Shown: piece by piece, positions 1-9,276 of the stretch
Layout of the letters: each line of letters begins with the position of its first letter
Position numbering within the stretch: position 1 is the first letter of the stretch
Origin: Bispira polyomma
Lineage: Eukaryota
Direction of reading: 5' to 3'
Length of the DNA stretch: 64,000 bases
Assembly (NCBI GenBank): GCA_965649765.1
Contig: OZ287756.1
Coordinates: forward strand, 16,864,001-16,928,000
The notes under the pieces: model-generated
Told to the model about the DNA's origin: nothing
The model's database searches: none
What the model saw: only the letters and a program-made list of their open reading frames with translations
Translations under genes and position numbers: made by a program

Positions 1-1494
1 CTGAAAACCAAATGGGAGGCAAGAGTCGACGTAGTATTTGTCTAATTTTAAGCCTAATAGATTGTAATCAGCTGGATCCATTTTCACGTGATGAAATGCC
101 CGACTTACGTCAATTTTATATAAGAGCGTTCCACGTCCCATACGACATATTTTGTTTGTAATTGTGTCAATTGTGGGAAGGGTTAATGCAAACGCAGTAC
201 CGAGATACTTATCCTTGACTACAGCCGAATTCACAGAGTTGCCATGAGGAAAGCTTAAATCTATGATAACGCGCCTGTGTGCGGCACCTGGCTTTTCCCT
301 AGTCATAAAGGGAGAAATATGGAGGTTTTGTATGGGGGCCTTATGGAAAGGGCCCAACATGGCGCCTAACTCAGTCTCTTCTTTTAAATAAGCATGCACA
401 TCATCTGGAAATTGTGTTGCAGATGAATGATTCTGTTCTGTATGAGATAACTTGCTGTCAGGATTAAAATCGAGGGGAAACCCATATCTTATCAAAAAGG
501 GGAGTTGCTTATCCCAGTAGTCAGTCAAGTATTTTTCCCATACATCTGGGTTCAACTCAGATTTCAATTGAACTTGTGCCCCCATATAATTTGGGTAGTT
601 GTCCTTCTTAATCTGAGTGTGTAACTCTAACAGAGACTTATCCGACTTTACTCGTTTATCCGTTTGGGGAACTTGGAGGTCATTTAGCGGAATAAACCCA
701 TACTTATCTGTAGTTTGAGTATCCCATTGCTGGAACTGAGGCTGGTTGGAAGCACGTTTTATAAGTTCCCTGTTTTTCGATTTAGTTTGTAGTTCTAGGT
801 CATATTTGTCTGATTTTATTCCCCCAGTACCTCGAGAGAGTATTTTAAGACCTTGACCTTGGTTACAAGTATCTGCTAAATGTGTGAAAGAGTTGTCACT
901 AGTGTCCATATAATGGTCATTGTCACTCAACGGGGAAAACCTATTGTGAGTGGAAATGGGCCATTTGCCCTGAATGTCTAATTTTGTGATTTCCAGCTTT
1001 TGGCCAAATTGATCACCTTTTGTTGGAGGGGGTTTACCCATTTTTGACATTACATTATTCCTCTGTGCACTTGTAAAAGGGGAAGCACCTTTTGTGAAAG
1101 TTTTAACACTCACTCTGTGCCCCAGTTCATGTTTTGTGGACACTTCTGAAATTTGGTTGTTATTTAAACATGGTGAACATTTAACCTGGTGACTTTGCCA
1201 CCTCTGATTCACATTCGCACTTTGTACAGAAACCTTTATGGCAGCAGACCTGGAGGGAGCCTTTCTTTTAACCACATCAGCATAAGATCTATTTACAAAT
1301 TTGGCCCAATCTGCCCTCCAATGTGTACTGCCAGTATTACATTTAAGACTATTATACACAGTTCTAGTGGGACAACCTTTAGAATTATTTACAACTTTTT
1401 GTGCAAGTTTTTTTCCGACCACCTCTTGTGTGGAAGAAACATAGGCTGGCACTGCATTACTGCAGTGCCTTACTCGTTTTTTAACGGATATTTT
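1..1494 (-). CDS. ORF2 (reverse transcriptase, partial) of the DIRS/Ngaro element; absent from the ORF track because it runs off the window
   Basis: Triplet-by-triplet scan finds no stop from 1494 down to 1 (upstream TAA at 1497-1495). Translation includes WEKYLTDYWDKQLPFLIRYGFPLDF, NHSSATQFP, LGAMLGPF, LHISPFMTREKP, IIDLSFPHGNSVN, KIDVSRAFHHV and SCLPFG. The frame is -1 relative to ORF1 and the first ATG is at 1050. Confidence 0.9.
1448..1482 (-). promoter_or_regulatory. Putative -1 programmed ribosomal frameshift signal (A_AAA_AAC plus stem-loop)
   Basis: Minus strand reads TT[A AAA AAC] GAGTAA GGCACTGCA-GTAA-TGCAGTGCC. The heptamer (1482-1476) is phased X_XXY_YYZ in the ORF1 frame, with a 6-nt spacer and a perfect 9-bp stem with GNRA loop (1469-1448). 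The -1 frame is the RT frame. Confidence 0.82.
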
Positions 1495-2444
1495 TTACAG
1501 TCTTTTGCAGGGTGGGGGTAAGACCTCCCATTTTGAAAGCATTGGTTACACACATGACTATATGACACACCTTTGAATTCGTGATCCCCTTTTTGGGGGC
1601 AAGTACCCCTCTGGAAGTACCTACATGGGATGGACTTCTCATGACTTTTCCTGGTGTTGGTTTGATAATTACTATTTGCAGTCTGGATGACAACCCTTTG
1701 GGCATGAGCCCGTCTAATCCTGTCCAACTTGTGGGCATCTCCCCAGGTTACCTTACCCTCTTCCATTTTACACAGTACAACGGCATGGCTAGCCTTAGCC
1801 GAGGTCCAGGAAAAGTCATGAGCGTCCTCCATGAGGTCAGTGAGATACTCCAACATTTGGTTTTTAACGTCTAAACTACTTTCATCTCTAGCTATACTGG
1901 CAAAACCAGAGACCCACTGGGCCATTGACAACGCGTCATACGTAACTCGTGTTTTGTTTTGTCCCCCTAGTATAACGTTCTGAGGCCAAGCCACCTTATT
2001 CTTCACCCACAGAGTGTCGGGACCCCCTCTCTGAGATTTTGACGTACCTGAATCATTAATGGCCACCAATTCCTTAAGACGTGAATCCACTGCAGTCTGT
2101 AGGGAGTCGGATGTATGTAGTGTCTGTAGCGTCGGGACCAGTAGCTCAGAAGTGGTTTGGTCCGCCTGTCTAGGTTGGGCTGCACTCCCCGGGCTCGACG
2201 CCGTCAAAGCCTGGGCTCCATGTGAACTGCGATAAACTTGCTGCTCAACTTGGGTCATACGCCCACTTAATGCTTTGAGTTCAGTCAAAATTTGTAGGTT
2301 AACGTCGGCAGCAGTTACACCATCGCCAGCCACAGAGTTCTGCTTGGAGGTTCCCACACTGGTATGCATTTTACAGTTTTCATCAATGGGTTTAATATGA
2401 CTAGTTTCACACTTGTGACAGTAGTATTGTTTCCTTGGGGCCAT
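1470..2444 (-). CDS. ORF1 (Gag-like protein) of the DIRS/Ngaro element, 324 aa
   Basis: Intact ATG-to-TAA ORF. N-terminal CxxC-H-C motif, a short coiled coil, and C-terminal CRYFQRGTC...H...CNQC...H...C zinc fingers. Lies directly upstream of the RT ORF. Confidence 0.85.
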   Translation of the reverse strand: MAPRKQYYCHKCETSHIKPIDENCKMHTSVGTSKQNSVAGDGVTAADVNLQILTELKALSGRMTQVEQQVYRSSHGAQALTASSPGSAAQPRQADQTTSELLVPTLQTLHTSDSLQTAVDSRLKELVAINDSGTSKSQRGGPDTLWVKNKVAWPQNVILGGQNKTRVTYDALSMAQWVSGFASIARDESSLDVKNQMLEYLTDLMEDAHDFSWTSAKASHAVVLCKMEEGKVTWGDAHKLDRIRRAHAQRVVIQTANSNYQTNTRKSHEKSIPCRYFQRGTCPQKGDHEFKGVSYSHVCNQCFQNGRSYPHPAKDCKKYPLKNE

Positions 2445-2989
2445 AGCCTAATATAAGAACTCGTGGCTTTGGTACCTGCAACTATACTAAAGGAACTGTA
2501 ACACGATAATCTAAATTAAATTATATGTAATCAGGCAAATAGCCGTGAATTTGATGCAATATAATTGATTTGACCACGTTCCTTTACCACCGCTCAAACG
2601 AGCATATAATCGCAAGACTCAAAGTAGAGTAAAACACAGGAATCCAGCAAAAACACTGCAGATCAGTTCCTCCTTAGTGTGTAGCACCACTTAGTGAATC
2701 ATTTGTTGCATTTCTTGTTTCCATAACACAAATAATAAAATCAGTGAAGTAAAAGTAAAACACATAAAAGTAAAAATGTAAAATATTAAAGATGGCGTTG
2801 TTGCCTAAATGACTTCAATAGTGTAAGTGAGGATTCTAGCTAAAAAGCGGGAAAACAGAGGTTAATTAGTACACAAGTAACCAATTAGGAAGGGGTTCAT
2901 AGGGCATAAACCCAGGGAGGAAAATACTAGTAGCACTGAACTTGCTATCCCCTACGGCGCTACCCCGCAAATTTAATGCGTGTATAAAA

Positions 2990-5575
2990 AGGTATAAAAC
3001 TATTATTTGCAGAAATGGTAAAATTCACATTTTATTGAACTTTCTATATTTTCAATTCCTTTAAAAAAATTTTTTTCCTATATTCCCATAATTTACATAA
3101 AAATTTTCAAACGTTTTAATATGTTTGTCTTTGAGTGACATTAAATTAATAAATTTTTCTTCTGAACTCAAAAGATTAAAGTTTACTTCCACATTGTTAA
3201 CAACATAATCAAAGAACACTTTTCTATCTCTATCGTAAACGGTACAATCAATTAAAAAATGCTGTTCGTCTTCTATAAAATTAAAATTACACATTGTACA
3301 CATTGTACACATTTGACAAATCTTTTTTTCTGGTATGTTCCAGTTTCTGTGGCTAGAGGCAGTATTCCAGATCTTAATTGGGCAATGAGAGACCTTTAAT
3401 TTCTATAAAGATTCTGTGATACGTATTCTTCTGTATAAATATGAGTTTTATATTTGACATACAATCTTAATTTCGGTTTGGTACATATAGATTCATGCCA
3501 TTCGAGATCATTTAAACAAAATAGCTTCTCTTCTGCGGTATTTAAATCAATGTGTTCTCCTGTGAGAAATTTTTCTTGCAAGCCTATCTGATCTAAAATG
3601 TTTTCTAAATCTCATTGTCCATTCTAATAAGCCTATTATAAAAATGATATTCATATACATTTTGAATTTTGGTTTTAGCCATCCCATATCCCCAGCTAAT
3701 ACATTTGGTGAGATTTTTGCATGCACACCCAGAAAATAACATGCTCTTTTCCGAATTTTATTGGCATAATTTTAGTGTGCAAAACCCTAAATATCACTGC
3801 AGTAGTCTGTTATAGGTATGATGCCACTTTCATATAATTTTGAGAATTTTTGAGAATGTTTTGAATCCAATATTTTTTTTCGAATATTGGTTAAATTTTG
3901 ATATTAATCCACCTAGTGCTCGCCCACCAGCTTCTGATAGTTCTTTTGCGCATACTTTATGATCTAGATGCTCATGCAAAGATACACCTAAATACTTACA
4001 TTGATCAACAATCGAAAGCTTTGAGGAACCAGTAACAAATTTACAACAAGACAGTGGTTTTCGATTTTTGCGCAAAAGTACAATTTGACTTTTTGATTTG
4101 TTTATTAATTAATGCATTTTTTTACACCACTGATCCAGTTTAGTCAGTAAAAGCTGTAAATGTTTTTTTACGTTTTCTGCAATTAAAACAATATCATCTG
4201 CATATAATAATATCCATATCTTTTTGTCACCAAAGGGGACACCTATACCCATATTTTTTATTTCAATTGCTTATTGATAAAGATTCCAAACAATGTTGGG
4301 AACAAATTGTGACCTTGTCATAATCCTGACTTACCATAAATCAGTTACTAAGTAAGTTGTTTAGCTTAATACAAGATTTATTGAAATTATATGACGAATT
4401 AATTACACAATAGAATTTATCTGTTATGTTATGGTTAAGAATTTTGACATTAATAAATCTTGGGTTACCTATTCAAATGCTTTTTGTATATCAATGGAAG
4501 CAACATATATATCTCTGTTATCATTTAAGTGTCTCCTAATAATTGAAGTAGGTGAAAATATGTGAAATCCAAAAGATCGGCCTTTGCGGAATCTATTTTG
4601 CTCATCGCATAATAAGCCTACATTTTTTGCAATAATTTATGATACAGTTATTTAATAATTGTGAGTATACTTTACTAACATGTGAAAGTAGCGAAACCCC
4701 TCTATAAGAGGATAGCGTGTAAGGATCTTTCAATGAACTTTTTGAAATGGATATTATAATGGTCTTTAACCAATGTGATGGAACTTTACCACAAGAAAAG
4801 CAAATGTTAAATAACTTATATAGAACGTGTTTGCAGTGTTGCTCTTTGAAAACTTCATTATAGATTTCATCAAAACCACAATTATTGTTCTTGTTTGATT
4901 TATCAATAACCTTTTCTAGCTCCTCATATGTTATGTCACCATTTATGTATTCAATACTACGATTGAAATTTACATCGTTTTCCAAATTCATTTTATCACA
5001 ATGATTACATTGCAAAGTAATCAACATCCTCCAAATTATCACCACTTTTGTTTGTGTACATTTTTTTGAATTCCTTTATCCATGTTCTTAGAACAAAATC
5101 GAAATTGTCGCATAAGTTTCCATCATTGTCATATACTGGATAACATCTTCAGGCAAGATGTGAACACAAGTTTGCCTAGTGGCTCGGATGACCACTTAAA
5201 ATGGCGGTCCTCTGTCACTGAGTGATATCTCTAGTGGCAGATTAAAGATCCTTGGGGACGTTGATAAATGGTCATCCTCAGCACCTCAGCGCCCATAGTG
5301 GCTGCCCATGAGAAAGCGCATTTGAAAGGACGTTATGTTCTATAAGTGCGCTATAACAAATGTACTATTTCATTTCATATACTGACATAGGGATTTTTGA
5401 TTTCTGAGGGCCAAGATTGCTAAATGTTTTTCCAAAACTCTTTGGATGTGAGGTAGAAATTTCTTTAATTTTTGTAACAAATTTATTGTTATATTGTCTC
5501 TTCAAAAAATCTTAGTCTCCTTTGAAATATTTGCCTAGATGATAAAAAGTTATTTCGTTTGGCAGATTTTTGTTA
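2990..5575 (-). mobile_element. Degenerate 5'-truncated non-LTR retrotransposon (RTE-X/Proto2-like ORF2 3' part)
   Basis: Fragmented translation: YRGVSLLSHVSKVY, IDIQKAFE, ILLYADDIVLIAE (~4180-4215), YKYLGV-like CKYLGV, IAQLRSGILPLA, and a C-terminal zinc finger ICQMC...IEDEQHFLIDC. Many stops and frameshifts. Clade assignment is tentative. Confidence 0.85.
5139..5374 (+). mobile_element. 5'-truncated SINE with Nin/Deu-like central domain, inserted into the LINE
   Basis: 10-bp TSD TCATATACTG (5129-5138 and 5375-5384); removing the insert restores the LINE frame KIPMSVYDNDG. Core GGATGACCACTTAAAATGGCGGTCC...GTGGCAGATTAAAGATCC resembles the Nin/Deu domain. L2-like tail GCGCTATAACAAATG(TTTCA)n. 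Confidence 0.75.
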
Positions 5576-6493: not shown

Positions 6494-9276
6494 TAGTTCT
6501 GAAATTCAGACCTCCGAGGGTTTTTTTTTTTTGCCGTCTGCCCTCTCCGTTCTGATCTTTCGTATAACAAGTCTTATTTTACGTTTGTTTTCATTGCAAG
6601 CAACGCCACCACACGGCACATTATGACCAGTTGCTGGCGATATCGGATACGTTAAATTATTGCCGGTAATATAACAGAAAGTTGCTTGTAAAATTTCTTT
6701 CTGTTTATTCAATTTTTACTTTAATTATCACACATAAGAATAAATTTAGGTGAAAAAAAAACAACAGTATTTAAATAATTAAATATATCTATTTTATGCA
6801 GGATATTTTCCACCAATGGAGACTCCTATTGTATTTTCCTAATATTATATGTTGAAACAACATTGAAAGTCATAAAGAAGCCATTGAAGAAAAAACAACT
6901 GGAAATAATGTAATAATAATAATCAGACAACTGTATGAATGTACAAGAAAAACGAGACTGATTGACCTGTTAATACCTAAAATAAAGAGAAGAATAAAAC
7001 TACATGCTTGCTTGTTTTTTTTAGCATCTAAATTTTACCTCAGTGAGGCCTTGTGCACAGAACAGAAATATTGATTATTTATGTTCAGGCAAGTAGTAAT
7101 GACATTTTTAATTTCCCAACACCCTCAGTCGTCTGTCTAATTTTTTTGAAAGTTTGCTAATCTTTTTTACAAATTTTAGACCCTCGGTCTAGGTGAGGGA
7201 AAAATGAGGGATTTCTTCAAGCCATACACCCATTCGAACCTGATATTGTGCCAATTCCTGTCATAATATCGGGGGACAATATTAGGCATACACCCACATA
7301 AGCTTGAATACTTCTCATTGTAGGTCTCTTCATTGTGGGAATAAGCAATGTCCTGTATATGCTCAAGTACTGTTGATCTCTCTCCTGTTGTGATACCCAT
7401 CTTGTCTGTGGTGATCTCTCTGTTAAATGTCCTCAGGACATGAAACAGACAGATTTCAAGTGAAATCTGAGGCATCACAGACTTGAAAACTCCACGTTCA
7501 TTCATATCTTTATCTGTCATCACCACATTTACATCGGTCCAGGCTGAATTTTCTTCTTTAAATTTCTGTACCATCACTCGAAGGGAGTCTTCGTCCGCAT
7601 GCTGTATCAGAAAGACAGCGGCAACCTGGCTCTCTCCATTGCCGTCAATACACCAAAAAGTGTACAAAACCATGCCCTGCTCGTTGGTTTTATGAGTTGC
7701 ATCCACCAGGAGTATCTCAGGGAATCTTTCAAAAGCTGACTTCATCTGTGCATCCTGAAGAAAGATCCCTGTTATAATGTCATCATTTTTCACAAAGTGG
7801 CTGTGCATCGATGGGTGGGCCTCTTTTATCCACTGTGCAAGGTTTTTGACAGGATTGGCGGTGTCACTTGGTTGGTTGACACTAGTTTTAGCTCCAGTGG
7901 CAATGTTGGGAATGTCACTCATCAGTTAGACCTTACCTGTCTTGTCAGAGAAGTGACTCTGTACCATCTTTCGATTAGCATTTAAACTATTCATTTTTGC
8001 AATCTCCTTCTCAGTTTCCGGATCTACCCACCTCTGCTTGGGGTTGAGCTTAAATTCTTCTTCAGACACTTCATGATTGTGTTGATCCAGAAACTGTGTG
8101 AGAAGTAGAGCCTGGCCATCTGATGTAGCCCGGAATTTCATAATGAAGGGGCAGTCTATCTTCTCTGTTCTTGTGTTAGGCCTAACACCCTTGGTTGATC
8201 TCTGTCTGAATGTAGTACTGTGTTTACACGCAAAGTAGGCCTCAGAAAAAAATCAAATCAGGATTATATGACTTGTTTGAGCCACATTTAAGAGAATTCT
8301 CTATTGTCCTGGAATGCTTTTTGGCAACATTCACTAGATTTTCTTTTTTAAAGGCTGCCAACTCTATTTTCAACTGTTCATAGCTAGAAAAGGACTAACC
8401 AACACTAAACCTAGCCATCATTCTATTTTAAAGGATTACCTAACTTTTTTGTCCTCACAAATATTTACTGAACCACCAAATCAATTTGCTACTATTGCTA
8501 CTTCACACACACTCACTGTTCACAGTATAAAACTGAACTGATTTACAAGCCCCATACCCCCATCTTATATTTTCAAGTGTAATTGCAATTACATCAAAAA
8601 CCCAATCAAGAATGTTCAGCCTGCTGCCACACATTTAGCATATATACCCTGCCACCTAATCAAGTATGGGAGTGATTAATGACACACTGAAAACCACTAG
8701 CTGAGACCTAATTGAATTTTGGCTGTCACCCTGCCACCTAATCAAGATTGAGAGTGATTATTGACACCCTCTTAATCCTCTGCAACTGGTGAGAGAGACA
8801 ACAAAGGGACCCAGGAGCCCCCTTCCCCCTCTTTGTAGTGCCTGCAGGTGAATTCTATTGTCATCATGTAAGGCATGTGTAATCTTTACCTCAACTTTGT
8901 GGATTGTTCTGTGTATTGAATCTGAAAAGTGTCTAACCTAAAAAAGACCTCATAAGAATCATAATTAAAACAATTAATAATAGAAAATGAATTAAATTTA
9001 AATGTAAGAGACATTTCTTTTGCACAAAAGTATGGGCGATATATGGGTTTACAAACAAAATAAAGAATTGGGTGAAGCTTTACACTTGCAAATGCCTGCA
9101 TCAGTTGTGATGTATTTATATGAATACTTATGTGCTTGTTTACTAAGTAAATCATTTTACAGTACTATATTTATTGCAAAACGAAATTTCACTAACACAT
9201 CCAATTGCAGAAATCAGAACAGGGAGGGAGCAAATGGCCAATCGGACTCCCGGACCGTTCTTAGCTTCAGAACTTA
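6494..9276 (-). mobile_element. MULE (Mutator-like) DNA transposon, internally deleted
   Basis: 9-bp TSD CACTAGAGG (6485-6493 and 9277-9285). Imperfect ~70-bp TIRs TAGTTCTGAA... / ...TTCAGAACTTA. The empty site is present in the paralog at ~25420. Encodes a MULE transposase remnant. Confidence 0.9.
7176..8421 (-). pseudogene. MULE transposase (ZSWIM3/FAR1-like) pseudogene, C-terminally truncated
   Basis: N-terminal MARFSVG*SFSSYEQL...CPFIMKFR...HNH, then PEILLVDATHKTN, IDGNGESQVAAVFL, VVMTDKD and ICLFHVLRTF (MULE DDE core and CxxH). Contains in-frame stops. Confidence 0.88.

Follow-up and report, generated by a model that had tools for sequence, protein, structure and literature searches.

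A slippery heptamer and hairpin conserved at the gag end of Ngaro-type retrotransposons, together with conserved splice signals, point to a probable frameshifted Gag–RT fusion and a probable spliced Gag–recombinase

Results

The window analysed here is a 64,000-nucleotide stretch of Bispira polyomma contig OZ287756.1 (assembly GCA_965649765.1, positions 16,864,001 to 16,928,000), which hosts the 5′ part of a retrotransposon on the reverse strand with open reading frames in the order gag-like, reverse transcriptase (RT)/RNase H (−1 relative to gag) and tyrosine recombinase (YR). ORF1 (1470..2444, minus strand, ATG at 2444) is gag-like, has 324 amino acids and ends in Lys-Asn-Glu-stop; ORF2 (1..1482, minus strand), comprising a linker, RT and RNase H, runs about 1 kb past the window start and measures 830 codons from stop to stop, into the neighbouring stretch and through RT and RNase H. 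Pfam scans returned RVT_1 (E = 1.5e-10 on a sister copy), RVT_3/RT_RNaseH, Phage_integrase and SAM-like domains, giving RT/RNase H and then YR on the same strand. The element belongs to a family of dozens of copies that are 96–99% identical, with a sharp 5′ boundary near 2969–2977; the window copy has intact gag and pol and a YR broken by a frameshift.

Copy boundaries define a 195-bp A repeat at the 5′ end of the element (2775..2969, minus strand). Full copies carry it again behind the B repeat, in the layout A1...B1-A2-C-B2, that is, split direct repeats downstream of YR. A2, the first 195 bp again after the end of B, is present in 9 of 16 full sister copies, and B2 in 3 of 3 extended copies, beyond a C segment of about 1.35 kb; the window copy terminates at the end of B and has no A2-C-B2. 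The pol frame stops directly after RNase H, and no methyltransferase family appeared in Pfam scans of three pol ORFs. An A1-B1-A2-B2 pattern without methyltransferase is the definition of Ngaro in the available passages of PMC4157794, PMC3783388 and PMC9210276. Judged by domains and repeats rather than by an RT tree against references, the element is of Ngaro type. A DIRS1-like identity was rejected (direct repeats, no long inverted termini, no methyltransferase), as was a PAT-like one, for which the split direct repeats are present but the methyltransferase is absent; a PAT derivative lacking methyltransferase has been reported from nematodes in the part of PMC4157794 available to us, and full exclusion of PAT would take a tree. 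Of the label ‘DIRS/Ngaro’ given in an earlier note on this DNA, the Ngaro half is thus kept, on direct repeats and absent methyltransferase, and the DIRS1 half is dropped. The same note expected no aspartic protease, and indeed none was returned by Pfam and the motif D[ST]G[ASC] is absent from 14 of 14 pol frames.

Several further structures were seen in and around these elements. A tandem array of a 1,656-bp A-C-B end unit lies downstream of one element (L304), and six loci (L319, L365–L369) hold A-C-B-derived and internally deleted copies. The 3′ non-coding region of the element, as seen at L031:6560–6830, contains imperfect tandem repeats of about 52 bp with inverted arms and weak Rfam matches below gathering. 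Past the B2 end of L303, outside the element, is a 161-codon open frame that resembles, by eye, a SAM-dependent methyltransferase. Directly upstream of the window's element, at about 3050–5100 on the minus strand, translations contain what look by eye like decayed LINE-type RT fragments, and broken ORFs at 7176–8252 (minus strand) appear, again by eye, to be MULE-type transposase-like.

The ORF1 product consists of an N-terminal Cys/His finger, a long helix, a helical domain and C-terminal Cys/His fingers. It has 320 homologs (3,804 at E ≤ 0.001 in a profile search), and Atlas returned only eukaryotic clusters. Pfam gave no match for ORF1, and Foldseek, run on its model (pTM 0.43), returned nothing at E ≤ 0.001, the best Z being 5.1 and no capsid fold matching; it is position and zinc fingers that suggest the name ‘gag’. 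Rfam produced two matches below gathering, neither at the gag–pol junction. Just before the gag ATG, at 2470–2490 on the minus strand, there is an acceptor-like TTGCAG|G, with which an intron in the 5′ UTR is possible.

At the end of gag, the slippery heptamer A_AAA_AAC (1476..1482, minus strand) lies in gag phase and is followed by a 6-nt spacer (1470..1475) made up of the final codon of gag and its stop (1472–1470), and then by a predicted stimulatory hairpin with a perfect 9-bp stem and a 4-nt loop (1448..1469). The −1 frame opens at a TAA stop (1495..1497) 12 nt before the heptamer, and its first ATG is at 1048..1050. On re-examination every coordinate given in the earlier note was confirmed. 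The hairpin is present in both the MFE and centroid folds (z = −3.24), and 1 of 200 shuffles was equally stable. The window contains 984 X_XXY_YYZ heptamers, both strands counted, and this is the sole one with a perfect hairpin of at least 8 bp 5–9 nt downstream. The combination of heptamer and hairpin at the gag end is real and not due to chance. A_AAA_AAC ranks among the most shift-prone sites on mammalian ribosomes, according to the portion of PMC5009743 available. The GNRA tetraloop, which had been singled out as a feature, is incidental because the loop sequence varies freely across 21 families.

We examined conservation in loci fetched by gag protein similarity, and hence independently of the frameshift signal, with all DNA evidence coming from one genome. 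After 29 duplicates were dropped from 180 loci, 151 distinct copies remained, forming 32 clusters at 85% identity. AAAAAAC occurs near the gag end in 142 of the 151 copies and in gag phase in 136, corresponding to 28 of 32 clusters in phase; of the other four clusters, two consist of one copy each, differing at one base and keeping the stimulator intact, and two are rearranged. Other Lys-Asn pairs in the same ORFs are coded as A_AAA_AAC in only 6 of 95 cases. The codon preceding the heptamer varies in its residue and keeps a final A. The gag stop falls 0–1 codons past the heptamer in most clusters (7 codons in two), and the −1 frame opens 3–69 nt before the heptamer in the cluster representatives.

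The stem covaries across the 21 hairpin families, in which 82.7% of cells are paired, against 75.1% when shuffled (0 of 500 shuffles reaching this value) and 18.6–45.9% when slid. This covariation is restricted to the outer stem pairs, and it rests mainly on one of them because five core pairs never vary, an invariance that structure alone does not explain. That one pair, 23–42, is G-C in 12 families, C-G in 8 and G-U in 1, a compensatory change; the C-G families form one branch of the RT/RNase H tree and the change probably arose once. Relatives down to 42–52% RT identity keep the heptamer and have a changed stimulator (another stem or a candidate pseudoknot), the families with different stems having the same spacing. 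In L062–L070 and L101 the heptamer is followed by a candidate H-type pseudoknot, whose two helices, 6 and 8 bp long, cross each other, in place of the hairpin. At the protein level, 65 of 89 full gag homologs in other assemblies end in Lys-Asn or Lys-Asn-Glu/Asp, extended homologs there have the stem arm translated, and 23 of 70 more distant homologs with a terminal finger lack a Lys-Asn ending. A gag profile scan of metagenome and viral contigs found no relative. The earlier note had proposed a check on related copies, and homologous families do retain both the phased heptamer and the −1 frame.

More distant gag clades of the same genome have other signals at the gag–pol junction. One clade of 5 clusters has G_GAA_AAC with pol in −1, and 6–7 nt separate this heptamer from a long stem whose loop is large; according to the passages available from PMC5009743 and PMC3542737, slippery heptamers tolerate GGA as their XXX. 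The loci concerned are L275–L278, L249, L253, L255 and L301, including one A_GAA_AAC variant. A second clade, of 12 clusters, has GUU_stop_U with pol in +1 (L265–L268, L290–L292, L299 and related loci), and the +1 frame is open for 517–948 codons in 8 loci. In a third group, a single family of 10 copies (L271, L272, L282–L286, L288, L289 and L294), pol is in frame after a single CAA_UAG_G, with 863 codons open in 5 copies and the stop within a predicted 8-bp hairpin; this one family may be a candidate for readthrough. A tree of RT/RNase H with 39 rows, none of them left out, places the +1, G_GAA_AAC and UAG groups each on one side of a well-supported branch and, being unrooted and made by a quick method, does not give the sequence of signal changes.

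A separate signal appears to serve YR. Within gag, a predicted 5′ splice site CAG|GTACGT (2042..2050, minus strand; last exon base 2048, phase 1) falls at Gly132, between predicted Gag domains. Gly132 is invariant in 29 gag proteins, and its codon has the form AG|GTA in 22 of 24 families, compared with 21 of 555 other Gly codons. Outside homologs all have, in 113 of 113 cases, a residue after the donor Gly that is compatible with a codon starting with A, and most distant-clade loci carry a donor-like motif at the matching position. On the acceptor side, 18 of 22 families have their first YAG past the pol stop in phase 1, against one third expected, and the remaining families mostly have a T-rich in-phase acceptor slightly further downstream; the YR acceptor is mostly preceded by 7–9 pyrimidines. 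For the donor at 2048, the predicted acceptor lies 9 nt beyond the first base of the pol stop. YR itself usually has no ATG ahead of its conserved core. From this conserved donor and acceptor in matching phase we predict that splicing yields a Gag(N)–YR protein, and we consider it probable that YR is made in this way. No spliced genomic copy was found among 35 loci (30 + 5) retrieved with natural YR-start and gag-donor stretches. Three contig runs of unclear kind had even cover; of their 38 joints, the 15 listed included none from donor to acceptor, which speaks neither way.

It could instead be that the Gag–RT shift is correct and YR is reached by a second frameshift, or by readthrough, at the RT/RNase H–YR boundary. 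Translation of YR in Ngaro has been held to occur probably by programmed frameshifting at this overlap (Poulter and Butler 2015, cited through PMC13003380), and in the window's family YR does overlap the end of RNase H in the −1 frame. Across 22 families, however, each of the three possible frames of YR relative to pol is found, YR frequently follows a stop of its own, several families have a stop in the YR frame between pol and YR, and the overlap contains no conserved slippery site, whereas donor and acceptor are conserved and their phases match. A second shift is therefore unlikely in our estimation, and splicing is the reading we retain for YR.

For RT, the −1 frame is open from the heptamer for 450–869 codons in 14 families, and a distant family has it open for 1,164–1,200 codons in 3 of its 7 copies. 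In the linker, the other two frames contain 7–16 and 25–38 stops in the 8 of 14 families where the block is correctly located. When the 14 pol frames are aligned, the −1 frame has three peptide motifs that are shared between families and lie ahead of ATG 1050 (1273..1368, minus strand). A search of pol against PDB gave no sequence match. Conservation of heptamer, phase, −1 frame and stem supports the earlier proposal that RT is produced as a Gag–RT fusion by −1 frameshifting, which we regard as very probably what happens at the gag end.

The predicted gag donor also permits another route to RT, by splicing to a phase-1 CAG within the stem's 3′ arm to give Gag(N)–RT, with the heptamer and hairpin acting as splicing or packaging elements. 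In 13 of 14 families a phase-1 YAG does occur 31 nt past the heptamer start, the core of the stem never varies and the conserved donor lies upstream. Against this, the YAG is preceded by just 4–6 pyrimidines in 12 positions, compared with mostly 7–9 at the YR acceptor, has 2–3 further AGs close upstream, is buried in the stem and is missing from the pseudoknot family; nor does splicing explain why the heptamer is exact and phased, or why the G_GAA_AAC clade has a different stem at 6–7 nt. We think this route decidedly improbable.

Separate translation of RT from ATG 1050 or some other downstream start, whether through a subgenomic RNA, internal initiation or reinitiation, is more doubtful again. 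RT does lie entirely downstream of ATG 1050, and the linker is fast-evolving and near neutral within families: shared variants gave w = 0.75 against 1.7 in the other frames in the window's family, the values for a second family being 1.27 and 1.73, so that purifying selection on the linker inside families is weak or absent, although the −1 frame of the linker contains no shared stops within families. Initiation at ATG 1050, named in the earlier note as a case that would count against frameshifting, is nonetheless disfavoured because conserved motifs precede that ATG in the −1 frame. Its position is not conserved between families, and the first Met after the heptamer shifts from codon 12 to codon 341 in the 14 families with long open pol frames, once lying beyond the conserved pre-RT block, while the frame is open from the heptamer onwards.

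Polymerase slippage at the RNA or cDNA level has a run of six A at the site in its favour, as well as two single copies (L136 and L145) with gag and pol fused into one open frame (1,239 and 1,040 amino acids), but it is scarcely credible given a fixed 6–8-nt spacer and 3′ structure, which are ribosomal features, the absence of such a run from the G_GAA_AAC and GUU_stop clades, and fused copies that are single and have not spread.

Discussion

We propose that RT in this element is made as a minority Gag–RT/RNase H fusion by a −1 shift and that the recombinase is translated from a spliced RNA joining about 131 gag codons to YR, a joint account in which we have good confidence from the comparative sequence evidence. 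In this mechanism, ribosomes would pause at the hairpin, allowing the Lys and Asn tRNAs to re-pair one base back on A_AAA_AAC, and the majority would terminate at the gag stop one codon on. The resulting Gag–RT fusion would stay uncleaved because the element encodes no protease. The spliced RNA would place the first ~131 gag codons ahead of the YR frame, and the common N-terminal finger and long helix may then allow co-assembly of Gag, Gag–RT and Gag(N)–YR. More broadly, we lean modestly towards viewing Ngaro-type elements as following a retrovirus-like programme without a protease, with Gag, a recoded Gag–RT and a Gag(N)–recombinase made by one splice. On that broader reading, the donor would be fixed and the gag–pol switch would have been swapped within the genome between −1 shifting on either of two heptamers with several kinds of stimulator, a +1 shift at GUU_stop resembling that of closteroviruses, and readthrough of UAG.

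Until now it has been guesswork how YR retrotransposons, lacking a protease, obtain the products of three ORFs from a single RNA; exact and testable cis-signals are here proposed for both downstream ORFs. For the window's lineage, these contradict the suggested frameshift between RT/RNase H and YR, and they predict that annotated RT and YR proteins miss their true N-termini. The dozens of natural frameshift cassettes in one host also form a comparative set for recoding studies, which includes a +1 GUU_stop site of a kind whose mechanism is still unclear in closteroviruses. Poulter and Butler 2015 and Goodwin and Poulter 2004 may mention the −1 overlap of gag and RT as well.

The excerpts searched, from PMC3783388, PMC3266345, PMC6681497, PMC8547959 and its preprint, PMC7192593, PMC4157794, PMC9210276, PMC9341512, PMC2632668 and the first part of PMC5009743, describe no slippery site, stimulator or spliced YR in DIRS-order elements. 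The earlier note knew of no account of −1 frameshifting in animal DIRS/Ngaro elements, which is right for defined signals, not found in these excerpts, and too broad for the idea, since the quotation in PMC13003380 already suggests frameshifting in Ngaro. In the literature searched we found no precedent for a defined signal, for a YR made by splicing or for the switching of signals; the notion of frameshifting in Ngaro is not new.

Among known systems, pol is in −1 in 28 of 51 animal LTR retroelements in the part of PMC5009743 available. The MMTV/HTLV-like architecture claimed earlier holds for A_AAA_AAC, the 6-nt spacer and the presence of a 3′ structure and fails for the form of that structure, a plain hairpin here and a pseudoknot in MMTV gag–pro (PMC5009743, same part). 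With −1 frameshifting in retroviruses and LTR elements the window's element shares, besides these, the gag-to-pol −1 layout; unlike them, it has no gag–RT protease and integrates by YR. Stem-loop-type sites, such as those of HTLV-2 gag–pro and astrovirus, are nearer in form to its hairpin signal. Compared with Ngaro, the order of gag-like, RT/RNase H and YR, the lack of methyltransferase and the A1-B1-A2-B2 repeats downstream of YR are the same, whereas the ~1.35-kb C segment separating A2 from B2 is different, and no hydrolase ORF was seen.

Retroviral env is the model for a 3′ ORF expressed from spliced RNA. There, as predicted for YR, one intron takes out most of gag and all of pol; the predicted product differs in retaining about 131 Gag residues fused to the recombinase. 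Finally, the 12-cluster relatives, not the window's element, resemble closteroviruses in having GUU_stop at the gag end and pol in +1; closteroviruses have a GUU_stop_C motif with a proposed GUU-to-UUU slip, as given in the passages available from PMC3542737, whereas in the relatives the next base is U rather than C and the host is no plant virus.
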